Of a DNA stretch of 64,000 bases, positions 2,984-60,927 are shown one piece after another (within the stretch, counting starts at the first letter, position 1; each line of letters opens with the position of its first letter). A model generated the notes under the pieces. It did not search any database, had not been told where the DNA came from, and saw only the letters and a program-made list of their open reading frames with translations. The position numbers and the translations under genes were made by a program. This DNA is from Amoebophrya sp. A120 (lineage: Eukaryota > Protista > Dinoflagellata): assembly GCA_905178155.1 (NCBI GenBank), contig CAJINV010000030.1:77984-141983 (forward strand). Direction: 5' to 3'.

Positions 2984-3141
2984 CGCAGTTGTGACTCGTG
3001 CGGGCCTGTATGGGTAGATAGGTGAGTAGTTCCCGGGTGCGCGAGCAGGACCGACCACCCACCCGGGCCCGGACGGGTGCTCCGGCGGCTGGCCTTCGCC
3101 GGGATCCCCGGGTGCACAAACAGGACCACCCGTCCGGGCCC

Positions 3142-12292: not shown

Positions 12293-15200
12293 ATGAAGTT
12301 TGTGCACGAAGCCTACGATGCCCTCGCGGAGGCGCGGGGGGAGGCACTTGCCGCATTTTCGGATTCGGCGAACTACAAGTACGAGATGACGTACGATGAA
12401 TTGGTGGAAAAATCCAACCTCCTCGCCCTTCGCGTTCTGCAACCAGAGTTGGAGAAAATTGCAGCTTCAGCACATCAGAAGTGGAAGAGTAGCGACCCGC
12501 GCATTGAGTGCATGATCGGTTTGGATGTCTGCCGGTGCTCACCGTACTTTCTGCCGCTCGTCCTGGCCGTTTCCCGGGTCGGGGGAACCTGCGTCTTCCA
12601 CGTGCGTGCGGAAAACGAGCGGGAGCTGAGCGAAAAGGTAAGCGTAAGCTCTATTGCAGTGAGGCATTACAAATACCTTCTCTGAGCTGCTAAATTAGCA
12701 TTTACAAGTCCCAGTTTTCCTTTTGCCGAAATTTGTGATGCTATTATAATCCGATGCCGTTGCCGATAACTTTAACTATAACAGGAGCGAGCCGCGAATC
12801 TCCGGCGCAATACGCAGGTCACCGAGCTTGTGGATTTCTCCGTCACGGAAGAGCAGTGCAAAACGGTATGGGACAAAAAATCCGCAGGCCGGTCATCCGC
12901 GCCTTCCGCTCAAAATCCCGCAAGAACGGAGGGTTGTACGGCTTTGGAAGGCGACAGCGATTCGAGCGGGAGGAGTGCAAGTACTACAAGGATTCCTTCT
13001 AAAAATGAATCAAAATCCTGTAGTTCTGTTTGTTCAACTACATCCCTTTTTCTTTCACAAGAACTGTTAGGTGGTTGTACTGACACCGCGAGGACCGCAG
13101 CGTCAGCCCCTACAAGAACTCCGAAGATTTTCGCGTTGCTCTTCACGGGCGGCACAGTCCGAGAAAAGATCGCCGCAGTCTCGCACGGAATGTTCCTGCA
13201 CGAGGTGCAGCACTACCACAAAGTCCTTTCCCCGGCGCTCGAGGCTCGGATGCGCTCATACAATTTCCCCAAAGACCAGGTTCGGGTTTGCTGCAACACT
13301 TCCCTCACGTGGGCTGCGAGCACGATTGGGCAGATCAGCATGGCGTGCGGCTTCAAAGGCGCTGTGTTTTTCCTGGAAAGCCCAGATTTTCAGGAGCAGC
13401 GACGCTTGCTGAAGAAGCATGACATCACCGTGATCGGCGTGGCGCCGACGGTTCTGCAGGCGTTGGCACCAAACCGCCCTTCCGCGGACATTCCCACCGT
13501 GAAGCTGGTGTTCACGTGGGGCGAAAAACTGCGCCGCGACGTGCGGGCGCGCATGCGGGCGGACGGGGTGCGGGTGTGCAACCTGCTGATCGCGACCGAG
13601 TACTGGCTCTGCATGGTAGCTGTTGACGACGCAGACGAATTTTCGCTTGTTGACAGCGACTTTCTTCAATACATGCGCATACAGGACCCGGATACCTTGC
13701 GCAGCAGGGCCCCTGCGAAGATTCAAAGCAGTCTTCCCGGAGGGGCGGCAGCAGCTGCGTTGGGCCAGCGACTGGCAGAAGAGCGAGCTCTTCAGACCCT
13801 CGGGACGAACCCGACGACGACGCCGAGTCAGACGACTCACACATCCACTGGGGTTCTGTGCTTGCGTGGTGAGTTCGTCACTCCCGGATACTTTGACCTG
13901 GCGGCTGGAAAGATTGTTCCGCTGGACAACATCCTAACTCTCGAAGACGGGTTGGAGTATTTTAACACAAATGACCGAGTGGAGATCAAGTGCGATAATG
14001 TTTACGAGAGCAACAGCACAGAAAAAGATAAAGTCCCGGCACTGGAGATGCCTCCACGACAAGGACAACAGGACGTCCGGATTGTTTGTTTGGGACGCGA
14101 CGACCTCAAAGTGAAGGTGAACGTATCAAAAGTAAAAATGTCTGGGTCTGGAAGCTTGTGATGCTGGGTGGCGTCTTATGATGAGGCTACAAATGCTGGC
14201 TCAGCATGACAAGTCTCTGAGCTCCTGGGTGTTGCCTATTCTGCATGACAAACTGCGCTTCTGCATTGCAGAAAAACGGAGCTCTTGGGTAACGTGCATG
14301 ACTGACAAGCATGACAAACATGACTTCTTCCAGACCCAGACATTTTTACATTTGATAGAACGCAGAGATGATCGATCTGGGCGAGGTTTGCGAGAAAATC
14401 CTCGTCCTCTCCGATTGCGTCCGTGAGGCCGAGGTCATTCCGTACCGCGAGCAGTACCAAGTGAACGCGCCGTTGCAGTACCATTTTTTCGTTGTCTGTG
14501 GGAACAGTGCTTCTACACGTGGACGGCGGGGTGGACAAACGGCACGCAAGGGTGATGTCGTAAATCAGCTTCTGGATAACCGGGCATCCAGTTCATCTTC
14601 CTCCAGCCGGGAAAACCACGGTTCGCAAATGTTGATCGCAGAACGAACATTGAGTGCTGCATCCACGAGTAGTTCTTCATCTTCTAGCAGTTGTATTGTC
14701 AACCCCCGGACGTCGACGAGAGGACAGCAACTCCGACGCGGACCAACGCTCCTTTCCCCGGAGTTAGCACTGGAGATCCAAAAACTCATCCCCCGTGCGG
14801 AGCACATCCGGTTGCACTTTCGCTGCTCGCCGTTGCCACGGCGGGCGGGCACGGACAAAGTTGACCGGGAGGAGCTGCGACGCCAGTTTCACCAGGCAGA
14901 TTGCAGTTGGCCGTTGTCCGAGCTCACAACGGTTTTGTCACCGCAGAAGCTGGCCGCAGTTCCGCTGGAGATCCGTGCCCTGGAGCGCGGCACGCAGGAC
15001 CGATTCGAGGAGCAAGCCATGCCGGTGTTCTACAACATAGCGATGGTGCTGCTCGTTGTTTATTTGATTAACCCAGAAAACTGCCTGAGAAATATCTTCT
15101 TTTTCTACCCATTCCTGTACCAGGGACTGTATTTCCTTCTCTTCGACAACGATTGCACGGCGGGCGTAGTGCGGGAAAAACACACGAAGACGCCACTTCA

Positions 15201-18200: not shown

Positions 18201-21200
18201 ACAAAAAAACAAAAATCTTACGCCGCTCTCTGGGCCGCTGAGTGGAGAGCTGGCCGCGCTACTGCAGGAGAAGGTGGGTCGCGGCCTGCAAAACCTGCAA
18301 TTTCGCGAAACGATCTTAGACGGAGTGCTAGACAGCCTGTTGCGGCAAGAATTGGCCCAGGCCATCACGGATAAATTGCACCGGAAGGTCACAGTACAGA
18401 ACCTTTTGCCGATCGAGACCGTGGGAGGCCTTCTGCAGATGGTGCAGTCGGCGGAAGTAATCAGCGCCTCCAGCAATGAGATGGACCAGTTCGTCGCGAT
18501 TGAAGACACGAAAGACGGCGCCGACACGACAACTCGCAGCGCTGACGGTCGCGGCGCAATGTGGTTTGTGGGGGCCCACCACCAGCCCATGGGCAGTTGG
18601 ACGGTTGCGACCACTAGCAGTTACGATTTGGCGATACTGAATGCCGCGTTGCACGATGTGCTCCAGAAACACCCCGCGCTGCGCACGATCCTTGCCGACG
18701 GTGATATGTTCTTGCGACAGATCGAACAACCCGCGACCCAGTGGCGACTGTTGGCCCCCATTCTGCAGCGGTCTGCGCAGCAGATGAAACTCGGGAAACT
18801 AGGGGAGGACCCATCACAGCAGCCAAGCGGGAACAGTAGTACGTTGTAGCTGCTACATGTTGTCTGCATTCTAAATTTCCCTGTTTTTGCCCTATTTCGT
18901 CCCGTCGGTAAACTCATTTCATGGCCGCGGATGCGAACGAATGCTTTAGACCTCCCACAGTGAAATATGATTGTGCTTGTCGATCACGCTAGGCATATGT
19001 GGTGCAGCCGGAGAACAAGCTATGTTTGTTGTATTTGCAGATATTGGACGTCGAACACCCTAAAGCTTGATAAAGGTGAACAAAAAAAAGAAGCGCATGT
19101 CCTTGTAATACAAACTTTTCAGGCACCTCCGTAGCTTGTCCCGCAGATCATGGAAACAATTGGTTTGTCCAGGCTTTCGCGTTTTGCGTCGACGCTGTGG
19201 TTGCGATCGTGAACGCCTCATGGCAGGTGACGTGGCCAAAAATGGTGGTGCGGGATTGCGCGGACCTTCGAACGGCTAGCTCGAAGCGCTGCGTCGAGCT
19301 GGCAGACGACGACATTGTATCCTGTGCAAAAGTAGAGGTACCATACTCGTAGTAAACGCAATTATGCATTACAAATTTTTTTCTTGAGGGAAATCCGCAT
19401 TACAAATTTTATTTCTCACACTGAGAGACCGTGAGGGCCAAGATCAAGATGACACCGTGCGGACGACCACAGGGGGCCCGTCTAACAACAACATGCTGAG
19501 GAAATTTGTCATGCATTTATATTACGAGTACGATATTTTTGCTTTTGCACTTCATACATTGCGGCGTTTTACGAAGCAAATGGATACGTCTCTGACAGCG
19601 ACGAGGAAGAGGAATTTTTCCCGGACATAGGACACGATGAACAGTTTCGTGACGCAGACCACCACCCCGGCACTGGTTCCGTGGATCATGGCCCTCCGCT
19701 GGCCAATACCGCACGGAAAAAAACACTGCTCGCGGACGCCCTGACCGTCCATGATTTCCACGACGAAGATCTAGTGGACTGCGCGCTGGCGGACAAGAAA
19801 TCGGGACGGCACGAGGCGGCCAAGCGCTTGGGCTGCTTGGGAAACAAGAAGGGCACAAAGATTTACTTCAACACCTGCGAGGAAGACGTGGCTGGGAAAA
19901 CGCCTCTCGTGAGTGCGAACGACGAGGTGCGACGGTGGTCGGACATCCAGATGCTGCACCTCGATCGCCCCGAGCTCGGGCGCATGATGGAGGTGAAATT
20001 GGCGAAGTTTAGTTACGACACGCTCGCTAACTCCGTGTGGTCGATTGTGGATGGAGGAGGAGGTGACGATCCGTACAATTCCAGACAGCACTCGCAAGGA
20101 GGTGGCTCTTCCGTGGTGCAAAAGGGAACGACTTTTTCCATTCTGCGAGTGGCCGCGTCGACGAAGGTCGACCGGGCCCTGGGAGAGCAACTAAAGCTAA
20201 TATCGGATGAAATAATTGGCAGTGATGTTCTTCCCGGAGCAGGAGGAGCCGGAGCCAACACCAAGGAACTACTAGTAAACCACGGGAAAGAACATGGAGA
20301 ACAAACCAAGTTAATCCTCGTGAACCGCAGCGTAAAATCGCTGTGGGTCGGCGAGGTGGTGCCCTTCAACCACCCGGAGTTTGTCTCGCCGCCGCATCGC
20401 TGTGCCGCTTTCTGGTCGGTAAAGTGTATCGTGGTTCCAATCCGGTGCGCCCTCACGTACGAGACACCGACGCTCCCAACGTCACCGATAGGGTTAACTT
20501 CGAATATCAAAACAAGTCCACGAGGAGCAGGACAAAAGCCGTCTGGTGCTTCAGCATCGGCGCGGAAAAACGGTGCAGATGGTGTTGCGATTGGACCTGC
20601 GAGTAGTTCTTCTACACCGAAGAAAACTACACTTCGTTCACCTGAACGGAAGAGCGAAGGTCCACCCGCGGGCTCCGCTGATTCGGATGATGATTTTGCC
20701 GCGAGTAAAGAAGGGAGTCGCGGCGGTGATAATCAAGGCAGTGTTAGCGCATCTTCCGGCTCTTCGGCTGCTGAAGATGGAGCAGTCGGTGGTCGAAGAG
20801 GTACTAGTCTGGAATGTTCTTTACCTTCGTCCTCCTCAGACGACGACCATGGGATCAACTTTTGGCCAACCACGGACGAGGAAGATGACAAAAACTTTGT
20901 ACGGCAGAAGCGACAAAAGGGTAGTTGCGCTGCAGGTCGAGGACCAAAAAATTCTTGGTCTTCCTCTGATACAGATACCGATTACGGATTCTTCCCGCCA
21001 ACCACGGATGAGGAGGAGAAAAGCGAGATCGAAATAAACACGAGGAAAGGTGGGAAACCAGCGGAAAATAAATCTCCAACTGCATTTTGCGCCTCTTCGT
21101 GCTCTTCCGCAAGAGGAAAGCCTGCGGGAAGCGAACAGAGCGAGGAGCCGGCCCCGGGCGCAGCGGCAGCCGTGACAGCAGCCGAAGGGTCATCGGGAAT

Positions 21201-38936: not shown

Positions 38937-39040
38937 GACTTTTGCTAGAAGTCGTCCTGTAGAAGATGAAGAGTTAGAGTTTAGCTTTAGTGATCCACCA
39001 GCCACGACGGACCAGCAGTGGACAGGGCGGGAACGCGGCG

Positions 39041-39903
39041 AGTGGGGACACGGCCAGGTGGGGACACGGCCAGGTGGGGACACGGCCAGGTGGGGACACG
39101 GCCAGGTGGGGACACGGCCAAGTGGGGACACGGCCAAGTGGGGACACGGCCAAGTGGGGACACGACGGCGGGTGGGGACACGACGGCGGGTGGGGACACG
39201 ACGGCGGGTGGGGACACGACGGCCGGCCAAGTGGGGACACGACGGTCGGCCAAGTGGGGACACGACGGCCGGCCAGGTGGGGACACGACGGCCGGCCAAG
39301 TGGGGACACGACGGCCAGCCAAGTGGGGACACGACGGCCGGCCGAGTGGGGACACGACGGCCGGCCAGGTGGGGACACGGCGGCCGGCCAAGTGGGGACA
39401 CGACGGTCGGCCAAGTGGGGACACGACGCACGGCCGGCCAAGTGGGGACACGACGGACGGCCGGCCAAGTGGGGACACGACGGCCGGCCAAGTGGGGACA
39501 CGACGGCCGGCCAAGTGGGGACACGACGGCCGGCCAAATGGGGACACGATGGCCGGCCAAGTGGGGACACGACGGCCGGCCAAGTGGGGACACGACGGCC
39601 GGCCAAATGGGGACACGATGGCCGGCCAAGTGGGGACACGACGGCCGGCCAAGTGGGGACACGACGGCCAGCCAAGTGGGGACACGACGGCCGGCCAGGT
39701 GGGGACACGACGGCCGGCCAGGTGGGGACACGACGGCTGGCCAAGTGGGGACACGGCGGCCGGCCAAGTGGGGACACGACGGCCGGCCAAGTGGGGACAC
39801 GACGGTCGGCCAAGTGGGGACACGACGGCCGAGTGGGGACACGGAGGTGGGGTCACGGAGGTGGGGACACGGAGGTGGGGTCACGGAGGTGGGGACACGG
39901 AGG
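39041..39903. repeat. G-rich composite minisatellite, core GTGGGGACAC
   Basis: Successive unit lengths of 16, 18, 23 and 14 bp, all built on GTGGGG(A/T)CAC; probably intronic. Confidence 0.95.
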
Positions 39904-40245
39904 TGGGGGCGCGAAGGCTGGTCCGAACGGAGCTGCAGAGGCAGATTTGGCCCCGGCGCCTCCGCATCTGCCGGTCAGACTTGCAGCTGCAATGGCGGGC
40001 TGGTCCGGTCTATATGCCCAGTATTTTATACTAATTTAAAAATGTTCCCTTTACATGAACTTTCTGGGAAATCCAAATGCTGAGATACGACACTCCCTGC
40101 TCGATTTTTTTACCGCTGTGGAAGTTGCATTATTTTCAATGTTCCTCGTAAGAATTGCATTTGCAGCAACCGCAGAAGCGGACAGCACTTCGGAAAAACA
40201 TTCATTTGCGCATGGCTTCCTGGTGGTTGAGCATCTCTTGGATAG

Positions 40246-43447: not shown

Positions 43448-44887
43448 GCTGGTTTTCAGTGATACACTCGCTGGAAAAGATAAACGCAGGATGTAGTTGA
43501 CATCTTGTGCACAAAATGTCAGCGCACCACGGTGGTTTTCGATCTTCGGAAAGTTGTCGTGACAACCGACCTACTGTCAGCAAAAATGAAAATCACACGG
43601 AATCTTACGAAGAAGCAGTCAGAGAGCAGGATACAAACGGACTTGGACCTTCACACTTACGCAACGAACACGGGGGTACTTACTTTTTGTTTTCCGTTCA
43701 CGCCAATTTTTTTGTGAATCTTGCATGCGTATGAGCTTAGACAAGATGCGTTGGTTACGTCGCCTCCACTAGAAATTGCTAACGCTGAAGTTTTCATATC
43801 GATTTTCCACAACGGTGTGCATTGCATTGGGAATCCCAGATGAATATGGCGTCTGAGATAAAAGACAAAGAAAAAATTATCCACAGGTATTTTACCTTCA
43901 CTATGTATTCCAAGAATCTCCTGGAATCGTTCCTGCACCTACGCGAAGAAGACTACCACTTTCCAGATTCGTCGACCAGAATCTTCGCGAGGACCAGATG
44001 ATGATCTTTCAAGTGCAACTCTCTCTTCAAACTACGTTTTAGAAATGCCCTGCTCACAATTCTTCTCTCCGGCGACGCCACGAGCGATCTCTTCGAAAAT
44101 TCAACTTCTGAAGAAAAGACAGTGTTGTTTGCGACAGCACGGAATAACACCGGAGAAGGATTGCTGTAGAAAAGACCTTACGATGTTGACGATGATCTTG
44201 CTGTACCAGCGGAGAATCGAATAAAACAACACTTTGATACAAACGGCATGCTCTGCACGCATCTGATAACGTCAATCATGATAAAAAAAATTGGAGCTGG
44301 AATGCTACCGAGATCAAAAGGCTTGTAGTTCAAGACTCTTTACTCGGATTGTTCCTGGCGCTAATCAAACGTCTCCAGTAAATCCAACTACTGGTTTGAA
44401 TTGCAATTTCTACAAGAACTCGATGACGAAAATAAAATTTGAATTTTCGAAAACGGAAAAGCCAGCCGAGAGACAGAACCACAGAGTGCAAAGCAATTTG
44501 TGTTTCTAGAGAGAGTCCTCGTGAGCGTTTACCAAATTTTATCAACCGATTTTGCTTTCATCTCCGCAAGAGTGTAACTTTGCGACTGCATCCTGAATCA
44601 TTCAAAATGCTATTTCCATCCCGTAGAAAAAAAAATTATGCAAGAGAGAAGGAGTAGAGTCGTCCTTGCGTGTAGTGTGAGTGGAGGAAAGACCACGATA
44701 AGTACTTACTATTAGTAGGGGTAGACATCAAGAGAGAAGTTGTACAAACAAGCAAAATCAAAAAGAAGAGTTCATACAGTAAAGTTTTAGACCTAATTGT
44801 GGATCGGACGAAAGTTTTGAGTCTTGTTGTCGCCATCAATTTGTTTGGCATGTAGCATTTTTCCGGTTCGTTGCAGCAAAAGCAAAG

Positions 44888-47800
44888 ATGGCACTGCAGC
44901 AACCGAACCCACCGTGCGGGGACGACTTGGCTTTGTTGTTGTCGAAAATTGTACTGCATTTGCCGTACGACGCCAGTGCAGTGGATCCGGAATTCGCCTC
45001 CTACCTTCGCGAAAACGCATTGACGTGTGTTGTGGTCGGGAAATGGCAGACCAGCAACCTCGAGCAACTGAAAAACCACAGTCTGGCTGCGAAAGCAGCC
45101 GGCTTGGCAACGAGAACAAGTGCTGGTGGCGGCATCGATCGCAACAACCCGTTCGCGCGGGCGGGGCAAAAGGCGGGCAACGCGGATTCCACCCCCGCAG
45201 CGTCGGAAGGGGGCGTCGCGTACTACTGCAGCCGTGTGCAGTCCCGCAGCTTCGGTTTGTCCATGGTCGCGGTGAAGCAGATTTCGGGTTCCAAAACCGC
45301 CACTTCCAAGACGGAGGAGCCCGCGTACCTGGAGCGCAAGCGGCTGCAGGTGCTGCGTATCCAGTGCAAAAGTATCGTTGCAATTGCTTTTATGCATTAC
45401 AAATCTTTTTTGTAAGGCAAATCCGCATTACAAATTCAATTTGTAATGCTGAGCCAATGTGTATTGCAATTTCTACTAGTACGATACTTTGCAATGCATA
45501 CTGCGCCTCGCGTGGGAGGATGGGTTTCCGTTGGACCTGCGCGAGATCGGCGTGAACCCTTACACCAAAACCGTGTCCTTCACGTTGCGCGACCAGGCGC
45601 CCCTCAGCCGCGGTGCCTTTCCGTATGCAGTGCAAAAGTATCGTACTACTTCTACAACTCGTATAAAAATGCATTACAAATTTCCTCAGCATGAGAAAAA
45701 ACTTTGTAATGCAGATTTACCGTACCCGTAACAAAACAATTAGTAATGCATGATTGCAATACGAGTACGATACTTTTGCAATGCATATTCCGGAGCACGA
45801 GCTGAAGCGGGCCGTCCGCGCGAGCGCCCGGGAGGAACGGGTCGCGAGGAATGAGAGGGGGAACGAAACCGCGGTAGGTGTGGCAAAAGCATCGTACTCT
45901 AGTTCTAGTAGAAATTTTTACGAATACAAATTTTTCGCAGAGATGAAGAAATGCAATTTGTAATTCGGATTTGGGTAAGAAACAACAAGGTTTGGATTTG
46001 TCATGAGTACGATCCTTTTGCATTGCATACGCAGACCAGGCCTACGAAATCCTGCCGCCGAAACGCGTGGCGCCATATGACAGTGCACAACTCCCCCTCC
46101 CCCTCATTTGTAATGCAAGATCCCGAATCCTCCAGCTGCTGCCTCGTAGCACTGTGTGCATGACAAATCCTGGAAGCCCAAACAACACTACACTCCAGTG
46201 CAAATTTGTCATGCAAAACCGGCATTCTTTCTAATGCTTGCATTGCTGTTCATGCAATACAAATGAGGGGGAGGGGGAGTTGTGCACTTTTATATGCCAA
46301 GGCGGTTCTCGACGAGCTCAAGCGCCGGTGGAGGAGCGGAAGGCCGGCTGGAGGTTGACGGCCGCAAGAATCGAGTACAGCTGCAAAGTATGAAATGCAA
46401 AAGCCTCGTACTAGTATAAATTGCATGACAAATTCCCTCAGCATGAAAAATGAAATTTGTAATGCGGATTTAGGTTAGAAGGGAGATTTGTGATGCATGA
46501 TTGCGAATTACTACGAGTACGATACTTTTGCACAGGATACAAACCGAGAGTACTAGCAGTGCTCTCGAAGGTCATCTGGTTCATTCCGACGTCGACGTGC
46601 ATCTTCCCGGGCTGAACTCGACGGCTTTCCAGCAGCTTGCGTTCCCCGAACGCGGCGCCTTGTTTCTGGAATTCTACATCTTCCGACCGTCGAATAAACA
46701 ACAGGTGCTGGGCGCCACGGGCGTCTCCGGGGACGTCATCTACCACTTCAACTACACCCTGGACCTGTTCAACCTCCGGCGCCGCAGCCGCCAGAAGCTC
46801 CCCGGGGAGCTCGGTACGGTGAAAAACCCGCCACTCGCGAAGGCACCCCGGGCCACCTTCCTGGATATCAAATGCAAAAATGTCTGGGTCTGGAAACTTG
46901 TAATGCTGCGTTGGGAATAGTGAATGCTCTGTAATGCACAGGCAAGCATCAGAAATATCTGTGCTTCTTTGTGGTGCGTTTTTCGCATGACAAACTGCGT
47001 TTTTGCAGGACATGCAAAAGGGTCTCTTCTTGGACACGCATCACAAACTTTTTGGTCATGCCAGACAAGCATGACAAACTTGCATTCTTCCAGACCCAGA
47101 CATTTTTGCATTTGATACTGGACTACGGAGAGGAAAATCACGGCGACGAGCTTTGTTCCTCCCGCCCGCAGCTCTTCGTGCAGGACTGCTTTCGCGTGGA
47201 GGAGGCCCAGACCGCGCGGTGGAAAGCCAAGCCCTACCTACGACCCTACTGCGAAGTGGAGTTGGAATCTGCAGATCACAGTTTTCAAGCGCCTCGGCAG
47301 GGACAGGAAAAAGGACCGTCAGTCGCGGCCTCATCTTCGTCCTCCAGTCAGGCGGGTCGGCGTGGAGATAAGAAGAGAGTGACGACGGGTACTTCCCAAA
47401 ATTTTTCGCATTCCTGCAGCAGAGGAACACCTTCACTAGCGAAATAAAACTAGAAATGTTTATTTTGTTTTTCATATGACGGCCATGTCATTCGGTTTGG
47501 GCTTTGCTTGACGCACCATGAAGGTTTGTTTTGTTTGTACTTATTCATTCCTAAGTGTAAGTAGAACTTTGTGCAAAAGCTAAATTAACATAAAACTACA
47601 GCTACTGCTACACAACCGTTTTTTATATTCTAGGCACACCAGGGCGAACCGCAACGAACCCAGCGAGGAGACCTTCAGCCGGTAACTCGAACGAACTCAA
47701 GGTACCTGATGACGACGACGACCAGGACCTTTCGCATTACCCAAGCAACAGCCGCAAACCAGCCTTGATGCGGAGTAGTAGAACCAGTGCAGCGAGGACT

Positions 47801-50800
47801 TCGCGCCAGGCCCTGGTGAAACTCGCAAGAAAGACGGGGAGCACGGCGGACACGGTCCGTAAAAAACCTTCGGGGCGCCCTATCACCGCCTCCACGGGCC
47901 GGCACCACAAGTGCTTCCGCATGGCCTGGGCGCTGGGCCGCCCGCGCGGACTCTCCTACCACTTCGGCAACAGTCGGTCCTTCCAGAAAATGCGGTTTTG
48001 GGACCTGGTTCGTTTGAAAACGATCCAGAAAACGCGGCTGCAGCAGGAGAGCCGCGGGGGAGGTGGTGCCCCCGGAATTATTGCGACAGCGGGTGCAGGA
48101 AATGGCAGCAGACGACGCTCTGGCAGGCGGCGGAGGAGCGGCGATGAAAGCGAGCGTCGAAGCCAGAACAATGCGGAAGAACGACGTCACCACAATGAAA
48201 ACGAAAATGATTTTTTCCCGTACTACGCGCACAGAAGGCATCGGGAAGAAATGGACGCAAATGCCGTGGAGAAGCTACCGTACGACGCAAACTATCCTGG
48301 GAGAAATAGCGACTGTCGTGCTCGTCGTCTGATAGTAATTGCATGAATCTTGCATGACAGCCGTTCTTGTCTCTGTGTGTCGAATCTGCAACGCAAATTC
48401 AGTTTTTCATGATTTCTTTGTCATGCAAATCTTACTAGCACAACAGGTTTGCAAAATGCATACGAATCATCCCTACCAGAACTCGGACGTGTACGAGTCT
48501 GCGGACCAGGTGAAGAAGTACTACTACCGTGCCATATCCTCTGCAAAAGTACCGTACTCGTGATAGGTAAATTGCGATATAGTAATTTTTGCATGACAGA
48601 TTTTGATTTACTGTCATCTTACTTGTTAAATCTGCATGACAAACTCGATGTTTCGTATGCAATCATTTGTCATGCGAAGATCAAGTAGTCAGATCTCTAC
48701 TGGTGCAATACCTTTTGCAAAAATGCATACACCGGCTGGAACAACCATCTTCTCAACCCGAATTGGTTTAGCGCGTTTCAAAAAGAGGACTGGCGCGAGC
48801 GGGAGTTTTTCGTGCAGAACGCGGCGCTGGCCGACCTCGATCCGTTTGACGGAGAGCAGGAATCCGAGCCCGACTCCGTGTTCGACGCGGATGACCGGCT
48901 CCGTGTATCAAATGCAAACATCGATCTGGGTCCTCTGCAAACTTGTGATGCGAAAATGTGGATAAATGGAATAAATCGTTCCGCATGCTGCCCAGCATGA
49001 CAACGCCTTTCGTGGCCGAGAGCGCTTTCTCATAGGCAGTCTGGATCAGGTGAGTGAGACTGCGTTTCTGCATGACAAAAGAGGCTGCGACTTTTGTTGA
49101 TTTTATGCAAAAGCAAAACTACAGATTTCCCAGGAATCGGAAGCTAGCATTACAAGTTTTTCAATTTTTCAGACCCAGACATACTTGCATTGGATACCAC
49201 GAGCTGGACGACGAACTGGCGCACCTCGCCCAATATCGAATGCAAATGTGTCTGGGTCGGGAAAGAATGAGATTTGTGATGCATGCTTTCGATCATACAA
49301 ATTACCACCTGTAGAATTGTGTATGTATTTCTCAACACGCAGCAGATTTTCAGGTAGGCATGAGAAATAACCTGTCGCACCACTGCAATTATGCTGCATC
49401 GCGGGTCATGTAAGATTTGCAGCACATCTCTCATCAATCTTCCCGACCCAGACAAGTTGGCACCGCACACCCAAGAGAGCGAGGACGACGAGCCGCTGCC
49501 CCCGCCGTTCCAAGTGCGGGAAGACCGAGCGAAGACGGCGACGCGCAACTACCTGAAGCCCTTCTTCTGGTGGGCCGTGCACCGCGCGCTCGACATGGAG
49601 GCGGCCCAGGTCGTGGTGCAAAGCTGCGTGGAGCTGGTCCGGGACCAGGTTGTGGCGGAGGAGGAGGCCGACCTGGCGACCGCCGTGCTGGACGCCGTCG
49701 CGGACAAGGTGGCGCGGAACGTGCTGGACCTCGAGCACGGCACCGTCGCCGACGCCTTGGTGCAGCATGCGGTGGACCGTGCGGGCGATCCAACCATATC
49801 CTGTGCAGAAGTATCGTACTCGTATTGCAAAAATCATGCATCCCGAGTCAATCCCCATTACAAATTTTATTTCTCATGCTGAGGATGAAATTTGTATATG
49901 CATTTATACGAGTACGATACTTTTGCAGTCCATAGACCAGTGGCGGCCACGATTTCGCCTCCACCGACCAGATTCTGCAGACCGTCTACGGAAACGCGGT
50001 GCACACACTGAGCAACGAGCACAAGGTGATCGCCCGGCGCACGCTCCACCGCATCTACGACACCGTGGTAGACACACTGCAACTCAACGAGGAGCAGGAG
50101 TTCGACGGAGGACAAAAGGAACAAAGCGAACCCAACGGGGGCCACCGGAAGGAGGACCTGCTGTTTCCCAGCACCTGGGGAAACCATAAAACGCTCGGTG
50201 GAGCAGACGGGGACAGTATCTACAGCATCGACACCTCAGACCACCAGTCCATCTGCGTTGTGGGCGACCCAGGACGCCCGAAGCTGAAGTCCGAGTTCGG
50301 CCCCTTCACGATCGGGTGCAAGGGAGTTCGCGTGGTCCGGCATTATTTCTCCATGGCCGCGGGGGATCGCGACTCGAATTCGTCGTGCGTAGCACAAGAG
50401 GACGGAGAGGAAGAGGAAGACACTGATTTATTTCTCAGCGAGGACCAACTGCTAGACCGGAAATACGAGGCACAGCGGCGGCGGCAACAGCGAAGACGGG
50501 ACCGCCGAAGCGAGATTTCTGACGAGCGGGAGGTGCGCAAACAGGTGATGCGCAACGCGAAGAAGTTTCGGCGCGAGCTGCAGAAGCGGCTCCAGTTCCT
50601 CGGGGACGCGCACGGACTCGATATGGCGTTCTCAACTGTTACATTCTCAACTGTTACACGGATTTGCTATGCAGAATTGCCATCAGCCTCCACACGATCA
50701 AGGTGCTTAGCATGACAAATCCTCGAAGGGCTAAGCAGCATGATAATCCGTTCCAAATTTGTAATGCAAAACGCGCAATCTTTCCGCTTTCACATTTGCT

Positions 50801-53197
50801 GTTCTTGCATCACACATTCATGTAACAGTTGAGGATGTAACGTTTGAGAACGCCATACTCGAGCTGCGAAGCTTCGAGCACGACATCTTCGCGTCGGAGT
50901 ACGGTGTTTTGAACCCGCACCGGCAGCGCCGCGGTCCTTCCGTCAAAGAGCTGGTTTGGTCCCAGGCGGTGAGGAGAGCGAGCAGTGCCGGGGCGGGGAC
51001 CGGCGGAAGACGAGTGCGAACCAACTACCCTGATGATGAACCACAAGACGAGGGTCGTATTGTGGATGGACAGAAAAACTATCGTGCAACAAACGATCGT
51101 GGCGAAGGAAAACATGGTGCTCGTGCTCCACCACGACACGGTGCGGGGAATAAGCCCGAGGTGAGGAACAAAAGCGGCTTGCAAGATGAAGTTTCTCCGG
51201 TCGACGTGCAGGGGCCGATCTACGTCACGCACGCTGCGGACGCGGTCCCGCACGAGCAGGAAGAGAAACAGGGGAAGCGGGGCAGCAATATCCTGAGTAA
51301 AAACAACGTCCCCTCTACCCCAAGGCTGTGCATCATGAAGGTAGCAAATCTGCATCATGAAGGTAGGTGGTTCTTATGCGGAGCCCCATGAGAATTGTTT
51401 TCTAGTCGACGCGCGTCGAAAATTGTGATGCTCCAATGATCAGCATAATATCTATAGATCTTTGTTGATGTGATGCTGTTGTTGTTGAAGTAGAAGCGAA
51501 TAACAGGATTGCACTACGAAGCGGCCACAGAACTTGTCATGCACAACAACCAAAGCTTGTTGATTTGTGTAGCAGATTTCCCGTCCTGACTACAAGGTGG
51601 GGACGTTTTCCCACGGGATAAGCAAGCGCGTGAACAAGCCTCCGCGTTCGGCGGGCCCGGCTGGGCGGTACGATGAAGACACGGGCCGCCCGCGGAGCTT
51701 CAGTAGCTGCTACGACCTTATGGATTGCAAAAATGTCTAGGTGTCCGGAAGAGTTAGAACTTGCATTTCTTGTTTGGCATTCCTGCTAAATCTGTGTTGC
51801 ATGTTTGTGGCAGCTGCGCGGATTTTGTGTCAATGAAATGCAAAAAAGGAGTACTTTGTAATGCGGACGCGCGCTACTCACGCATGAAATAGAAAAAGCG
51901 CTGAAATAAATATTTGGCATGCGTGGCTGCACTAGGAAGACCAATTTTGGCCATTCAGCATCACAAGTTCATTCCAGACTCAGACCACATATTTGTGATG
52001 CATAGACCTGGTAGTACAGCAACACCGCGTGCGCGCGGCGGACGCCGAGGGAAGGCAAGGACCGGCGTATCCTGTGCAAAAGTATCGCACTCGTAGTATT
52101 TGCAATCATGCATTACAAATCTTTTGCTTAAGGTTAAGGTGAATCCGCCGGATTACAAATTTTATTTCTCATGCTGGGGAAATTTTAATTTGTAATGCAA
52201 TTTATACTCAGTACGATACTTTTGCACTGCATAGGGCGGGAATTGCAGCAACTCGTGGTGGTCCAACGAGGAATTTTCAACCAGGCCTGGCGTTCAACCC
52301 GGATGAATTTCGCATCCTCCGAGCTAGGAATTGCAAAAGTATAAAGTAGTACCAAAGCATCGCACTGAAATTGTACTTGTAAAATTGATTATAAAGATAG
52401 TCAATCAGTTGCATCTTCTATAGTGCAAGACTTGTACTACAAGAAGTTCTTGCGTAAAAAAAAGCAATTTTTTGTCAACTACATGCCAGATCAACTAGAA
52501 GGATAGATCTGTCACGACGCATCATGCCTGGTGCGATGATCTTCACTACGAGTGTGCGATATTTTTGCAAAGGATACGAGCCGGGAGGGACCAACTCAAG
52601 ATGTATCGGGAAGAGGAGGAGCAGGCGAAGGAAAGGGCGAAAAACCTCTGTAGAAGTGCCGCGTCAAAAAAAGCCGCGGGTGGCCGGAAGACGGCGTCCA
52701 GTACTTGTTCGTTTGATAGATAGTTTCATATTTAAATCAGCTTAAAAATCGTAGAGTTGATTTGCACTGCTGGACCTGATCCTGATAGTACTGTGTATTC
52801 ATTTTTCACTACGCACGATCTTCAATCAATTGTGTTTCTTGCTTGCTACGGGGCGCAGAGACCCCAGACATAGCGGTGACAGTACATGAGGTCATCGTAC
52901 GTAGCAAGTTGTACTTCTTCTACAGAACTCAAGAAAATGCGCCGTATACATCAAAGTACCGAATCAGATACAACAACAAAACCAGGTTACTACGACGACC
53001 GGAAAACCTACCAGTGGGATGCCCCGGTGGACGTGTTTGGGCGCGAGAAAGCGGAGATTCTGGCACAGTACAAAGAAAACGAGAAAGCCAAAACTCGGTC
53101 CGCCGGCGGTCGTGCGGGTGGGAGTGCGGTGGCAAGCGGTTCTGCGTGGAAACTGGATCTCGGCGAGGTCGATTGGATGGCGGCACTGCAGATGTAG
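44888..53197 (+). CDS. Large hypothetical protein interrupted by 16 introners and two GT-AG introns (47356-47633, 52701-52925)
   Basis: Removing each TIR element plus one TSD copy gives a single continuous frame from MALQQPNPP to ...DWMAALQM*. No domain recognised, and the start is uncertain. Confidence 0.8.
45358..45500. mobile_element. Introner family A
   Basis: TATCCAGTGCAAAAGTATCGT...ACGATACTTTGCAATGCATA; perfect TSD CTGCG. Confidence 0.93.
45624..45787. mobile_element. Introner family A (opposite internal orientation)
   Basis: TATGCAGTGCAAAAGTATCGTACT...AGTACGATACTTTTGCAATGCATA; perfect TSD TTCCG. Confidence 0.95.
45875..46029. mobile_element. Introner family A
   Basis: TAGGTGTGGCAAAAGCATCGTACTC...GAGTACGATCCTTTTGCATTGCATA; TSD CGCGG/CGCAG. 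Confidence 0.88.
46076..46294. mobile_element. Introner family C (C5TC5 TIR)
   Basis: ~42-bp TIR TATGACAGTGCACAACTCCCCCTCCCCCTCATTTGTAATGCA and its complement; TSD CGCCA/TGCCA. Confidence 0.92.
46389..46539. mobile_element. Introner family A (opposite internal orientation)
   Basis: TATGAAATGCAAAAGCCTCGTACT...GAGTACGATACTTTTGCACAGGATA; TSD CAAAG/CAAAC. Confidence 0.9.
46866..47117. mobile_element. Introner family B
   Basis: Perfect 30-bp TIR TATCAAATGCAAAAATGTCTGGGTCTGGAA; perfect TSD CTGGA. Confidence 0.96.
47258..47684 (+). repeat. Dispersed exon-intron-exon duplication (partner at 54522-54893)
   Basis: Shared GGAGTTGGA..CACAGTTT.CAAGCGCCTC.GCAGGGACA..., AATTTTTCGCATTCCTGCA, GTGCAAAAGCTAAA, ACCGCAACGAACCCAGCGA. 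Confidence 0.85.
48293..48462. mobile_element. Degenerate introner family A
   Basis: TATCCTGGGAGAAA...TTTGCAAAATGCATA; TSD CAAAC/CGAAT; frame restored (YDANHPYQ). Confidence 0.75.
48535..48729. mobile_element. Introner family A
   Basis: TATCCTCTGCAAAAGTACCGTACTCG...TTTTGCAAAAATGCATA; eroded TSD TGCCA/CACCG; frame restored. Confidence 0.82.
48906..49196. mobile_element. Introner family B
   Basis: TATCAAATGCAAAC..TCTGGGTC...GACCCAGACATACTTGCATTGGATA; TSD CCGTG/CCACG. Confidence 0.87.
49234..49469. mobile_element. Introner family B
   Basis: TATCGAATGCAAATGTGTCTGGGTCGGGAA...TTCCCGACCCAGACA; perfect TSD CCCAA; right terminus eroded. Confidence 0.88.
49797..49934. mobile_element. Introner family A
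   Basis: TATCCTGTGCAGAAGTATCGTACTCGTA...TACGAGTACGATACTTTTGCAGTCCATA; TSD AACCA/GACCA. Confidence 0.93.
50622..50857. mobile_element. Introner family D
   Basis: 37-bp TIR TATGGCGTTCTCAACTGTTACATTCTCAACTGTTACA containing an internal 15-bp tandem; perfect TSD CTCGA. Confidence 0.95.
51289..51620. mobile_element. Introner family E
   Basis: TATCCTGAGTAAAAACAACGTCCCC / GGGGACGTTTTCCCACGGGATA; perfect TSD AGCAA. Confidence 0.87.
51719..52004. mobile_element. Introner family B (opposite orientation to the 14124 and 46866 copies)
   Basis: TATGGATTGCAAAAATGTCTAGG...CAGCATCACAAGTTCATTCCAGAC..GATGCATA; perfect TSD GACCT. Confidence 0.88.
52068..52233. mobile_element. Introner family A
   Basis: TATCCTGTGCAAAAGTATCGCACTCG...GTACGATACTTTTGCACTGCATA; TSD CGGCG/GGGCG. 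Confidence 0.94.
52325..52576. mobile_element. Introner family A
   Basis: TAGGAATTGCAAAAGTAT...GATATTTTTGCAAAGGATA; perfect TSD CGAGC; gives ILRAGRDQLKMY. Confidence 0.88.
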
Positions 53198-54521
53198 TAA
53201 GCGAAAGCTGCTGGAAGTGGTAATGGCGTAGCTGTTATTTTTGGACAAAAGAAGGTCTGTTGCGACGCTCGTGTGAATGAAAGAAACAGAGTCTCTTGAC
53301 GTTTTGTATTTTTTCTCCGTGAAAAAGAGAAAAAGGAAAAGCAGGAGTGCCTTGCTGAATAGAATACTTAAAAACACGAACTGCACATCACAAAATGAAC
53401 AGTCTTTTGTGGGGAATATCTCAACTGAATGAGTTCTGTAAATATCGGCTGGCATCGGTGAATCAAGATCGAGTAGTTGCGCAAGACAAATTTGATCAAA
53501 GAAGAAAAAGATCGCGACCTCCAAGAAACTCACTCGAGGCCAATATGATTCAAGTAGGTTTTCAACCTCGTGCCAATGCTCTCCCTCGGGATCGCTTGTC
53601 TTTTTTTTTAACCGTGACGATATTAACCTTCGTGATTGCATAAAGTCCGAGGAAGTAGTACTGAGGGATCAAGTGCGAGAGGGACATTACATTTTAGGCT
53701 TACTACACGCATGTTTTTTTCATTTTTTCTCAAGCAAGTCTTTTGTAGGAAATTTAATGGAAAAATGAAAATCCCGCGCCGAACGCAGTCACTTAATAAG
53801 GGCGAAGGGAGGACAACGAATATGCTGTTCATTGCCCCTACAACTTGAGGGAAAAGTGGGAAAATTGATTTCGACCTGAATCGATAGTCTTTTGGTTTTA
53901 AAATGTATGTTAGGGCAGCAGACGGCTGTCCGGGCAGCAGTCTGCAGTAGTCTTTCGAGTTGTCTGGGGTCGTTCAGGGCTAAGGCTGCAAGAGCGGAAT
54001 TTTCTACTGTCCTCGCCCTGGTAGTCGTTGTAGTAGGGTATTCAGAAGCAATAGGAAATTGCTCCTGTGCAGACCGTCGTCGTACCGGTACCGAGAGCGC
54101 CGCACAGGTGTACCTGAACCGCTCTCCTAGTTCCACCACGGCATCATCATTTCGTTCCATCGAACTTCTTCGAGGTCAGTCAACGACGCCGACCAACCTA
54201 GCCTCAGTCAACGACGTTACCACTAGGGTATCAGGGCAGGCTATTCCTGCCGCGCGTCGGAGGAGGGAGATGCGCCAAGCCCCGCTCGAACTAATCATCA
54301 TCATTTGAGGTGGGCGGAACACAGTATTTTTGTATATAGTGCGTTCACGACTTATGGCAGATTGATAGTACGTGTACGAGTTGCTATGTTGATGCTCGCA
54401 ACATTTTCTTCTCTTTGTACTTTCGAACAGACTGGTATAATATTCCTCGTCAACGAACCGGTTCAGATTGAGCACCAAAGGTAGTACTTCTATCTTCTTG
54501 CCCGCGGCCTTACTGGGAAGG

Positions 54522-55476
54522 GGAGTTGGAGTACGCGGACCACAGTTTCCAAGCGCCTCAGCAGGGACAAGAAAGAGGATCTTCCGTCGCGGCCACTTCT
54601 CGTCCAGTCAAGTGGGTTGGTGTGGAGAGAAGTACCAGGGAAGTGACAAGAGGCACTACAAGAATTTTTCGCATTCCTGCACCAGAGAAACACCTTCAGC
54701 AGCGAAAAACTAGTAATGTTTATTTTGCACTCCATATTTTAATTTTAGTTTTTCAAACTTGTGATTGGTCCTTGGTTTTGCTGTGTATCCCTAGGTAGTG
54801 ATTCGTGCAAAAGCTAAAGCTAAATTCACATAAAACCACACACTACAGGGCGATCAACCGCAACGAACCCAGCGAAGCCAGCATCAGCCGGTAGTAGTAT
54901 GGACGAAGTGAAGATGGTGATGCTTTGCAAAGTGCTGCGCGTCTTCATGTTGCCGGACGCCAAGGAACTGCGCCAGAAAGTCGTCAGCAAACCCTTCAAC
55001 TTGAGCACCCAAGTTACTTTTATCTTCTTGCCGGCACAGGAGGTTTAGTTTAGAACAGCACCAGTAGCCTGCCTTTCCCTGTGGCAGTTCCGGCAGCAGC
55101 AGTGTCACTGTGGCGGTACGGAGGCAGGAAAGGCATCTTCTAGCGGCACTACCTAGAAGAAACACTACAACGTGCCGAAAGTGGACTACATCACTGTGGA
55201 GTGACGGCAATTAACCGTATTCCCCTTGCTCGTTCAACATCTACCACCTCTGCCCACCACTCTCTGGGACACGGCAGCAGAAGGATCACACGCTTCATCA
55301 TCGATAGAGTCCTAGTGCTGGCCTATTGTGACAAAAAAAACCTGAACAACGGACACGGAGACCGAAACTACGGGAACACTTTGCGCGCCGGCGTGGATCC
55401 CATCTAGAGTCTCTTGAAGGAGAACAACCAGACCACCTCCTTTGAGTAACCGCAAAACCAAAAGCAGTGGGCGAAG
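54522..55476 (+). pseudogene. Patchwork of duplicated gene fragments
   Basis: 54522-54893 matches 47258-47684; 54918-54990 matches 63312-63385; 55248-55503 matches 61910-62136. In-frame TAG/TAA at ~55405 and ~55447. Confidence 0.6.
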
Positions 55477-58400
55477 ATGCTGAACATCAACATCCGCGCT
55501 GGGGAATTCCAGGACCTGTACGAGTATGCATCGCAAAAGTATCGTGCTCGTACTCGTACACTTTGCAGCACAGCATGACACCATTGTTGAAATTGGTTTC
55601 TTATTCTTACGCTTCCCTCATTCAGCATGACAAATAAGTACATTTTTACTTTCTTTCTCCTTCTGGAAAAAATTGTATCAAATGTTATTTGTACCAGTAC
55701 GATAGGATACTTTTGCAATGTATAATGAGCAGCTAGAAGAGAAGTATCCGCCGAAGCGCGCCAAGGAGAACTTGAACGCGCTCGTGGTGCATTCCGCCAT
55801 GGCGTGTTTCGAGAAGAAACAAAAAGAGAGCCCGCCGGCGCCCGTCTTGATGACGCAGCAGCCCGGACAACAACCTGCCCACGCTGGTCCGTCGACACTC
55901 GGCCTTGAGTCGTCCGGTGCTCCGGCGGAGGCGATGAACATGATTCCCCTCTCGGCGTCGAGCGGCACTACGCCCGCCGCAGCGGCCCCAGCAGCTGCGG
56001 CACCAGCAGCGGCCACTTTGTCCGTACCTGAATCTGGCACCAGCAGCGGCCGCGCGGAAAATGGCAATGTTAGCGTTCCCGCTGCGAAAGCAAGCGCCGT
56101 GGCAGGTACCGCTAGCGCCGTTGTGGCAAGAAGCACCTCCGCGCTTGATGTTCATCCGGGCGACAGCGTAGCGAATCCTTCATCGACGTCAGGACCTGCT
56201 GCTTCGACTGCGCCTGTCGTTGCAGAAACTGCCCCGTCCACAAGTGCAGCTATTATGCATCGCAAATATTATATCATCTGGGTGTGGAAGTCGTGTTGCA
56301 ACTTGTAATGCTGCTTTTTGATTCACATTCGAAAAAAATCTGTACATATTGCCTGAGCAGCAAACGAACTTTAGTTTTTCTTGCTACGCGGACAGGGCAT
56401 TTGATTTCACACTGGATAGGCATCAAACAGGACTGAGAAAATCTGTGATGCTAGGGCGCACATCAGAAACATTGTAAGTTACAGTCATGCAAAATGTGAA
56501 TGACCACGAGCGTTACATTTTTTCACACCCGGACATAGTTGCATTTGATAATTATTGAGAAAAGGACCAATCGCCGTGTCGCGGACGGATATCCTATGCA
56601 AAATCATCGTACTCGTAGTTGTAATTGCATTTATGCCTTACAAAGCCCTTTCTCAAGCTGAAAGTGAAACAGAAACTCAATCCGCCTGACAAATTTCGTC
56701 GCGTTGCTGAGCTACAACTTTGTTGTCTTGCAATAGCAATACGACGAGAACGAGTGCGATAATTTTGTACTTGATAACGGAACTGAAACTGCAAGAGAGG
56801 CGGGAGCTTCGAGTTCTTCGGAAAGCCACTCTTCCGCAACCATGGTCGTGAATTCGGGAGCCGGCAGCAGCACCACGCCTTTGGTGTCCGCTCCAACAGT
56901 TTTCTCGCCACCCGAAGCTGCCACTGACACTTCTGTGGGTGTGCCGGGGCTGGCGACCAACAACGACGAATATTTAACAACTACTGCAGCAACATCAAGT
57001 GGAGAACAACAAGCTTCAGAAGTCGCAGGGCCAGGCGTTGCCGCATCGTCCAACTTAACCGCGAGTAGCTCTGGTAGCGTGCCAGCCGGAGAACAAGTAG
57101 ATGCCGCTGTTTCCTTGCAGACGATCCGTCCACCTCCTGGGGCGCCAGTTACACAAGTACGACTACAACTACTACCTCTACCTCCTCAATCCACTGTCAG
57201 AAACACGGCTTGGCGTCCGTTTCCAGTGCCCGTTCCAGACGAAATCGGCCGAGCTATCTACAAGTTCTTACCGGAGCCCCCGGTTTTTACGCAGGTTGAC
57301 AAGTTGCTGCGGAATGACGTGATTCTAGGACTGCAAGTCACGGACGGGATGAGGACGTGGTACCCGAAAGTCAAGTCGTACAAGGAGGGCCTCGATCCGT
57401 TCATTGTCGACTTTGCTGACGATGTACCTGTGCGTTTGTCCTTTTTGCAACACGATTTTGTTAACGGCCAACCTGCATCCAAGTTGTGCTTGCGGTTCAA
57501 GATTCATGCTCATGGCGATGGGTATTACATTTATCTGCAAGAGTTCGCACATTGGACCGACTTGCAGGGCGGCTTCATGCTGAAATTCAAGTCCATTCGT
57601 CACGCCGGTACGGTCGTCAAATTGATCGTCCGCTTCACGCCCGACGATGTTGACAAGGACGATGTTGACAAGAACAATTTCTACGATCACCACCCTGTGA
57701 ATCTGGTTACCGAAATTGCGAAATACGGCTGCGACGGGATTGCGGAGGTGACAAAGCACCTTCCCGGCGTAGAACGTGTCTACGACGGTCGCCGATCGAC
57801 GCTTACGATTGAGCGGTACCACATGGACTTCAAGGAGGCCTTCCCAGGGTATCACCGACGGCGCACACAGCGGATGCTTGACGCAGCAAAAATTCCGATG
57901 CGATCGCAAGAGACGGACAACACCATTTCGCCAGAGCTGGTTGAGTCGGACGAGACAAATGCGCTACTAGCAGCACGCTTTCAGCCTTTTGCACATGATT
58001 TGGCGAACGCCGAACCGGGTTTCCCGAAGACGTTCGGAGACTCCAAAGCCAAAGTGCCCACAAACACTTTCAGGCTTTTTCCGAGAGTGGATCGCAGGTC
58101 TGCAGAAGTCCTGTTCCAGACCGGTGTCGTATCCGACGTGATTCCCATCAAGCTAGCGCAGTCCTTGGCGAGTACAGAGCCAGCTCTGCTAAGCAGCGTG
58201 TCATTTCATTTCCGACCGAACCCGCTTTCCGCCAACGAGGATTACGGAAAAGAAGGAGTAGTAGCGGAAACGGGAATGAGAATCATCCCCAGAGCAGATC
58301 CGTACTTCTTCCTCCATGGCTGCGATGGCAGTCTCGCCGTCGCCTTTCCGGAAATTGGATTTACCCAGGCGTCCTTCACCGATCTTTCTGAGATAGAGTC

Positions 58401-60666: not shown

Positions 60667-60927
60667 TATCAGATGCGAATATATATGGGTCTGGAAACTT
60701 GTGATGCTAAAGTGTGGATGACAGGGGAAACATTTCCGAAACCGAATGCAGCCAAGCATGACAATTCTCCAGAACCCTTTCGCATGCGACGCTGCGTTTT
60801 TCATTTTCTATGACAAGAGAGGCTGAAAATTTCCTTCGTCATGCAATACAGATTTCAGATTCAGAGGAATGCAAAGCCAGCATCACAAGTTCGAACTTTC
60901 CAGGCCCAGACATCGTTGCGATGAGTA
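60667..60927. mobile_element. Family B element downstream of a stop codon (UTR or intergenic)
   Basis: TATCAGATGCGAA..GGGTCTGGAAACTTGTGATGC...TTTCCAGGCCCAGACAT; no clear TSD. Confidence 0.7.

Follow-up and report, generated by a model that had tools for sequence, protein, structure and literature searches.

How can an insertion leave a transcript without disturbing the reading frame, whichever way round it lies in its gene? A 64,000-nt stretch of DNA from Amoebophrya sp. A120 (the window, at its full length) raises this question, as one of its genes carries 16 introners together with two GT–AG introns (Table 1). An initial annotation, made from the letters of the DNA, had proposed that introners restore the frame in either orientation, that they are recognized through a symmetric TIR hairpin or symmetric motifs, and that this points to a non-standard mechanism.

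Introners of one host gene

The 16 inserts are AT-rich, 138–332 nt long, and lie between 45358 and 52576; they start with TA and end with TA (CA in one), and each is flanked by a 5-nt direct repeat, the target duplication. Across the window, 20 of 23 copies have TAT at the 5′ end and 21 of 23 have ATA at the 3′ end; some copies have decayed, and TAT…ATA persists through this decay. Of 55 occurrences of the subterminal motif GCAT[GTC]ACAA or of its complement, 45 fall within the window's 4871 element bases. The elements show the features of MITEs: they are short and non-coding, with inverted ends, a target duplication, many copies and either orientation.

In the excerpts of Farhat 2021 (PMC7789003) considered here, A120 introners have inverted ends consisting of TAT, seven bases and AAA, carry 3–5-nt direct repeats and lack GT–AG, and a hairpin was proposed for them. 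The elements of the window share with these the TAT…ATA inverted ends, 5-nt repeats, removal without GT–AG and occurrence in repeated families, and the host protein bears the same organism name. They are the published A120 introner class, all four traits that define it being present. The same excerpts state that more than 60% of the 66,565 A120 introns are non-canonical, leave border and mechanism open, and report no transposase in A120. Gozashti et al. 2025 (PMC12130899) tabulate A120 introner families in supplement file 8; among 22 of its 58 A120 rows, most are assigned to TIR DNA elements without a known superfamily, and many have non-canonical ends.

Once spliced, the host gene yields a forward-strand frame of 1437 aa, against 304 aa for the best minus-strand frame and 259 aa for the best unspliced one, and each of the 16 introners gives an in-frame stop if kept. 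This frame equals the database protein P0001 (Amoebophrya sp. A120, 1437 aa; 100% identity to the exon query), the annotation of which probably rests on similar data and hence provides no independent evidence. The exon query also returned one relative, P0002 (47% in the alignment), which aligns without a gap over six sites (45358, 45624, which is reversed, 48535, 48906, 49234 and 50622) and is too divergent for a gap reading near 46389, 51719 and 52068. Pfam gave no match to eight exon pieces of the host gene, and Rfam gave none in 44500–57500.

The initial annotation had placed the introners in several host genes, all on the forward strand. The strand was right; the number of genes was not, since 45624, 46389, 46866, 49797, 51719 and 52068 lie in one gene. 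The listed pieces of a single 4582-nt contig span 45150 to 51283 and the later joints occur at its depth, from which it follows that these copies share a gene. Forward-strand frames were also claimed around 14124 and 19318, and in the sequence these frames open only when the element plus 5 nt is skipped (99 and 79 open codons each side, as opposed to 21–30 when the element plus 4 or plus 6 nt is skipped). The same frame test gave no decisive signal at 5254, 33055, 55525, 56254 and 56590.

Table 1. Host gene, introns and introners, in window positions (flanking repeats given as 5′ copy/3′ copy)
Feature	Coordinates	Strand or orientation	Flanking repeat	Removal and remarks
Host gene	44888..53197	+		19 exons, 1437 aa, 16 introners and 2 GT-AG introns
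Canonical GT-AG intron	47389..47633	+		removed in same contigs as introners
Canonical GT-AG intron	52701..52985	+		loose end 52702 (3/4 runs) runs on into next exon
Family B introner	14124..14357	+, forward	GAACG/GAACG	at end of AMP-binding-domain frame; frame evidence only
Family A introner	19318..19556	+, forward	CATTG/CATTG	frame evidence only
Family A introner	45358..45500	+, forward	CTGCG/CTGCG	148 nt removed, by letter count (330 = 330)
Family A introner	45624..45787	-, reversed	TTCCG/TTCCG	169 nt removed; in gapless block conserved with P0002
Older family A copy	45875..46029	-, reversed interior	CGCGG/CGCAG	joint 45873-46034; cut falls past duplication base 4
Family C introner	46076..46294	same orientation as 50622	CGCCA/TGCCA	224 nt skipped
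Family A introner	46389..46539	-, reversed	CAAAG/CAAAC	156 nt skipped; cut precedes duplication base 5
Family B introner, reference	46866..47117	+, forward	CTGGA/CTGGA	257 nt skipped; perfect 30-nt inverted ends
Decayed A-like introner	48293..48462	+	CAAAC/CGAAT	175 nt skipped; no predicted end-to-end stem
Decayed A-like introner	48535..48729	+	TGCCA/CACCG	200 nt skipped; no predicted end-to-end stem
B-like introner	48906..49196	+, forward	CCGTG/CCACG	296 nt skipped; cut falls past duplication base 4
B-like introner, ends ACA not ATA	49234..49469	orientation weakly resolved	CCCAA/CCCAA	241 nt skipped
Family A introner	49797..49934	+, forward	AACCA/GACCA	143 nt skipped
Family C introner	50622..50857		CTCGA/CTCGA	241 nt skipped
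Introner, further family	51289..51620		AGCAA/AGCAA	337 nt skipped
Distant family B introner	51719..52004	-, reversed	GACCT/GACCT	291 nt skipped; stop in frame if kept
Family A introner, reference	52068..52233	+, forward	CGGCG/GGGCG	171 nt skipped
Introner starting TAG, no assigned family	52325..52576		CGAGC/CGAGC	257 nt skipped

Excision in both orientations

The ends of these elements are near mirror images by construction, and orientation here means that of the interior; 30 nt was cut from both ends before alignment to keep the inverted ends from determining the outcome. Compared in this way, family A runs forward in 5254, 19318, 45358, 49797 and 52068 and reversed in 45624, 45875 and 46389. 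The interior ATTACAAATTTTATTTCTCATGCTG is found at 49857 and 52152 and, as a variant, at 19399; the reverse motif lies at 45685 and at about 46437 (in copy 46389, with a spacer one base longer). Same-strand and opposite-strand scores were 38 and 110 for 45624 against 52068, 29 and 97 for 46389 against 52068, and 87 and 40 for 45624 against 46389, the best of 30 shuffles reaching 24–30, and blastn matched 46389–46540 to reversed 52233–52067 (79%, E 1e-31). Both scores and blastn thus uphold the two orientations of family A originally read from copies 49797 and 52068 (with the 19318 variant) on one side and 45624 and 46389 on the other. Copies 45358 (forward) and 45875 (reversed) are further oriented members that had not entered that argument.

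For family B, 51719 had been taken as inverted relative to both 46866 and 14124. It is weakly opposite to 46866 (25 same, 50 opposite; shuffle maximum 30), and its five best family-B matches among the listed outside copies, described below, were all clearly opposite (76–91 versus 26–31), so that the inversion stands; the direct match to 14124 scored below the cut-off of 45.

The RNA evidence consists of assembled contigs from four runs, covering two samples of one study, which were labelled RNA by guess; no listed run with this stretch is on record as RNA, and the contigs come with neither strand nor read counts. Strand was read from the frame and the two GT–AG introns. The removal of intron 47389–47633 identifies the contigs as spliced RNA and marks their plus strand. 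Over 45150–52720, where contig runs were compared, 15 of 20 joints are listed, namely 14 element joints and this GT–AG intron. At 14 of 14 listed element joints, each in all four runs, exactly the element plus 5 nt is skipped; they include forward (49797, 52068) and reversed (45875, 46389) copies of family A and forward (46866, 48906) and reversed (51719) copies of family B. The joints of 45358 and 45624 are fixed by letter count, as 330 letters lie between 45352 and 46540, equal to the predicted exon sum; similarly, 361 contig letters were counted and 361 predicted from 51283 to 52986, an interval that covers the intron at 52701–52985. The sole copy with a listed retained form is 48293, in two of the four runs (depth 18.5 versus 33.4 in run X1). 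From two raw-read RNA runs came reads at element ends only (92 from X8 and 2 from X9), which were uninformative for the host gene. Taken together, these data demonstrate that the elements are removed exactly from spliced contigs in both orientations, with the frame, here of 1437 aa, restored as first claimed; the contrary outcome, excision of one orientation only, was not found.

We extended the comparison to at least 127 outside loci from one metagenome-collection assembly (about 190 stretches estimated), which were fetched by the family-B end motif and are therefore not a random sample. L087, a duplicate of part of L071, was dropped, and L044 and L045, which overlap, were both kept. Their flanks have no long match to the window, and they may come from another strain; everything reported for them was read from DNA. 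The listed loci hold 254 elements, 199 of them with a perfect 5-nt repeat where detection required at least 3 of 5 bases. Coding strand was predicted with a model trained on the other window frames, which called 18 of 18 known joints correctly. A strict threshold gave calls for 131 elements (same-locus agreement in 76 of 80 pairs), and locus-level calls covered 76 of 120 loci, the rest being excluded in each case. Relative to the predicted coding strand, orientations in the listed loci were 26:22, 13:12 (family B), 9:8 (family A) and 6:8 under the strict threshold and 37:30, 16:19, 10:13 and 8:14 at locus level. Counted on these loci rather than genome-wide, the four families thus appear to lie either way at about 50:50, with no significant bias. 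When the frame was called on each flank separately, the two frames agreed only if a single duplication copy was counted in 25 of 27 cases for one orientation, 19 of 25 for the other and 11 of 15 for other elements, where chance predicts one-third. Target bases were unbiased in the listed loci.

Proposed cut register and end signals

Eight joints are informative for the position of the cut, their two duplication copies being different. At these, 9 of 9 mismatches at duplication positions 1–4 keep the left base and 3 of 3 at position 5 keep the right, so that the sole common cut retains four left-copy bases and makes the intron N + TAT…ATA + NNNN. Two joints (45875 and 48906) set the lower bound and three (46389, 48293 and 48535) the upper, and independent uniform cuts would share a register by chance with probability 0.077. 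If a single register exists, its 5′ cut lies 1 nt ahead of TAT and its 3′ cut 4 nt beyond ATA, an assignment with modest statistics. P0001, which has the dependence noted above, fits registers 3 and 4 only. A base-composition test on the listed outside loci gave the register no support, with no switch at position 5. There, duplications with A/T in the 5′ copy and G/C in the 3′ copy outnumber the reverse (30 versus 9 cases) at all five positions; the skew is unexplained, and the mutation spectrum does not polarise it. A preference for G at duplication position 5, seen in the window, was gone in the larger outside set (A44 G39 C34 T29).

None of the 14 listed joints has U2-type ends (GT/GC/GA–AG) in any register that the RNA allows, and the prospect of conventional signals in each orientation was, for these dinucleotides, not borne out. 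At the inferred register such ends occur in 5 of 188 listed outside copies, and the 3′ terminal dinucleotide takes all 16 forms among the 188. The first and last bases of an intron are normally constrained by the spliceosome; here they are free. A branch consensus that pairs with U2 was not evident in the elements. Two asymmetries would hint that sequence is read on the RNA, although neither survives correction for multiple positions. The A lying 7 nt before the 3′ cut is unchanged in 189 listed outside and 23 window copies, whereas its 5′ mirror T is changed in 4 outside and 3 window copies (0 versus 7 of 212; post hoc, with one dubious element dropped, p ~0.016 before correction for the positions examined). 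A variant that creates GTAAA occurs 28 times in the 3′ arm and 11 times in the 5′ arm, on either family end.

For most copies, an end-to-end fold is predicted whichever strand is read. The two decayed copies 48293 and 48535 lack any such predicted stem and yet are cut exactly, which suggests that the hairpin may be less important than the end motifs. Selection on an RNA stem would predict an excess of G·U pairs over mismatches on the transcript strand, and none was seen (108 versus 134, and 34 versus 67 at positions 8–15). Of the recognition first proposed, the symmetric motifs fare well, as all shared signals are symmetric and conventional ends are absent, whereas the two stemless copies and the G·U counts lend the hairpin no support as the signal. 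The further step to a non-standard mechanism needed a different footing. Inverted ends give the same letters at both ends, and the introners of Polarella and Aureococcus are used in either orientation, so that orientation-independence alone is insufficient; the real argument for non-standard splicing is the absence of splice dinucleotides, which was already made in Farhat 2021.

Known systems and candidate machines

The elements themselves are known, as are either-orientation introners with ordinary-type splice sites in other algae. In the excerpts available of the relevant preprint (bioRxiv 10.1101/2020.10.14.339549, citing Huff 2016), introners of Polarella glacialis and Aureococcus anophagefferens are transposon-derived, lie in either orientation and are removed with the duplication; they differ in having GT/GC/GA donors, with sites that the element or the duplication supplies, and in an orientation bias of classes 6, 8 and 10. 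MITE-derived introns of Fritillaria borealis, as excerpted from PMC11282704 and bioRxiv 2025.08.15.670264, also have inverted ends and duplications and are removed despite non-canonical ends, but they keep preferred AG-AC and AG-AT ends that belong to the inverted repeats, whereas the terminal bases here are free target DNA. Nonconventional introns of Euglena, in excerpts of PMC12501133 and PMC11282704, lack GT–AG, have inset paired ends with a longer 3′ overhang and direct repeats at the joint, and have a proposed MITE origin; their code, 5'-N3CDG…CH'GN5-6|R with a purine-starting exon, differs from N-TAT…ATA-NNNN, for which we found no purine rule. In Farhat 2021, as excerpted, the place of splicing with respect to the hairpin is described as variable and the border as unknown, whereas one register fits 8 of 8 informative joints here, and the passages of that paper on orientation concern that of genes only. 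The 22 rows from Gozashti et al. 2025, compared by description, contain no orientation counts or single register, and their automated duplications are 2–5 nt.

A search of the literature, with figures and some full texts outside its reach, found no paper in which Amoebophrya introners have their orientations counted or a fixed register assigned. What is new with respect to that literature is that use in either orientation, a lack of splice dinucleotides and a single fixed register come together; the gain is a rule rather than the elements. A fixed register would predict the sites of lariat branches or circle junctions, the critical bases of synthetic introns and gene annotation, and removal that is orientation-blind, target-blind and scarless would explain how coding sequence can be invaded at almost no cost.

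We propose that non-autonomous DNA transposons insert at unselected 5-nt targets, and that symmetric end motifs would then place one cut a single nucleotide ahead of TAT and the other four nucleotides beyond ATA, as the eight informative joints suggest, such that the element and exactly one duplication copy leave the RNA. In either orientation, mirror-image ends would present N-U-A-U where the 5′ cut falls and A-U-A-NNNN where the 3′ cut falls, with end-to-end pairing acting as an aid and not as a ruler. The putative catalyst is a modified U2/U6 spliceosome without U1 that would read U+2/A+3 as a relaxed donor, and the candidate branch point is an A of the terminal AUA, the best being the A 7 nt before the 3′ cut. 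Such a spliceosome is favoured because A120 keeps nearly all components but U1 (in the excerpts of Farhat 2021, six of 89 spliceosomal proteins and, among the snRNAs, U1 alone were not found), because N-U-A-U is donor-like and because Stentor offers a branch precedent, its 15-nt introns having the branch A at position 10, 6 nt from the end (PMC9505925, excerpted). In Fritillaria, the spliceosome is reported to excise transposon introns with non-canonical ends (PMC11282704, excerpted). As a full statement, that introners in either orientation have their cuts set by symmetric motifs and are probably removed by a modified spliceosome, the proposal seems to us evenly poised between right and wrong; the spliceosome as the machine is a guess among rivals. 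To the wider reading we give slightly less than even credence: Amoebophrya would have a general code without terminal dinucleotides, in which every UAU…AUA insert would be cut 1 nt upstream and 4 nt downstream of its ends with the duplication erased exactly, and would become a silent intron at any target and in any orientation, through a machine (a U1-less spliceosome branching at a terminal A, or a separate enzyme) undescribed in any eukaryote.

Next in rank to a modified spliceosome comes a separate, non-spliceosomal system similar to that of Euglena, in which a nuclease and ligase, or some other machine, would read the paired ends with a 1-nt 5′ and a 4-nt 3′ overhang and release a circle or a linear RNA. 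The Euglena code is likewise an offset stem without terminal dinucleotides (PMC12501133), and circular intron products are reported there (PMC11282704), each in excerpt; U1 went undetected in Amoebophrya (PMC7789003, in excerpt), the prevalence of predicted end-to-end folds suits a reader of paired ends, and 48293, the one copy with listed retention, is among the weakest. It is harder to reconcile with 48535, which is stemless by prediction and has no listed retained form, with G·U pairs that do not exceed mismatches, and with a first exon base that follows no purine rule. We regard a separate system as a serious contender, close behind the spliceosome and somewhat less likely than not.

The modified spliceosome also has to be weighed against three readings that are each unlikely. 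Ordinary splice sites might arise in each orientation from element and duplication, as in Polarella and Aureococcus; besides that precedent, a GT start is present at the inferred register in 7 of 16 window introns and 55 of 188 listed outside introns. This GT share is, however, the plain frequency of G before TAT, only 24 of the 188 listed outside copies read GT/GC/GA–AG in any register, an acceptor-like TTTTGCAG in the 3′ arm of 49797 is passed over, and 51719 has a GT-AG reading on the minus strand only while its contig is spliced at GT-AG on the plus; with 0 of 14 joints, the idea is largely refuted and is the least probable of all. The joints could instead be artefacts in which reverse transcriptase jumps hairpins at direct repeats and the assembler retains the short form. 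Hairpins flanked by direct repeats are a known setting for such jumps, and the contigs are cDNA-derived. Yet keeping any of the 16 elements gives a stop although the protein is conserved over the sites, depth is zero in all four runs in the in-element bins 48945–49197 and 51728–51980, and 48535 and 48293, with decayed repeats and stemless, are removed exactly; we hold an artefact to be very improbable. Equally improbable is removal from the DNA, similar to that of TA-bounded eliminated sequences in ciliates, which would be inherently orientation-blind and would suit TA…TA ends with inverted repeats. Where a DNA-like run, X5, was included, 15 of 1093 joints were listed, and a rare empty-site form could hide among the rest. 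Against this, element-less contigs also lack GT–AG introns, one retained form occurs alongside the spliced form, and contigs of X5 continue unbroken at depth 42–44 through 48293 and 48535 (47094–49088), 49234 (49070–49823) and 52325 (52156–54224).

Introner-like copies and duplicated segments in the window

Beyond the introners of the host gene (44888–53197, + strand) and those at 14124 and 19318, the window holds five further introner-like copies, as well as decayed elements resembling family B that retain the subterminal motif GCAT[GTC]ACAA or its complement between damaged ends (Table). Tandem arrays lie within positions 1–4100, with units of 29, 54 and 40 nt, and GC-rich arrays with units of 16 and 23 nt lie at 39004–39949. 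The 40-nt unit of the array at 2767–2996 is palindromic and contains GATTACAAAA/TTTGTAATC, which closely resemble the introner subterminal motif.

A piece of the host gene spanning an exon end and the start of a GT–AG intron (47241–47467) has a second copy 7 kb downstream (54505–54727; 78% identity). Three further local pairs, 77–87% identical, suggest decayed gene copies. Across three other + strand frames, AMP-binding and Mpv17/PMP22 domain matches exceed the cut-off, and alpha/beta-hydrolase matches are weak and fall under it.

Features in the window and in outside loci
Feature	Location	Remark
Frame (+)	12782–14158	
Frame (+)	29241–30254	
Frame (+)	40246–42219	
Introner-like copy	5254–5409	
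Introner-like copy	33055–33226	
Introner-like copy	55525–55724	
Introner-like copy	56254–56550	orientation opposite to 14124
Introner-like copy	56590–56776	
Decayed family-B-like element	~60680–60946	from sequence only
Decayed family-B-like element	~62540–62988	from sequence only
Duplicated pair	55247–55427 / 61909–62090	
Duplicated pair	54917–54989 / 63312–63382	
Duplicated pair	62171–62249 / 63227–63305	
Element ~2× usual length	L017:570–1051	
Element ~2× usual length	L025:1029–1525	
Element ~2× usual length	L009:1813–2270	

Duplications and long elements in outside loci

At the outside loci (at least 127, L001–L127, from one metagenome assembly), mismatched target duplications carried A/T in the 5′ copy (in host-gene sense) and G/C in the 3′ copy by 30 to 9, a skew present at all five duplication positions. 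The three elements of about double length are possibly nested insertions or longer parents.

Reads and contigs compared with the window

In the raw-read RNA run X8, 92 reads at 46864–47117 join a family-B end to flank from elsewhere, which suggests an unspliced family-B copy within another transcript. At 51258–51265, DNA-like and RNA-like contigs alike differ from the window by two substitutions and two compensating gaps; this difference, either an allele or an assembly slip, leaves the frame intact.
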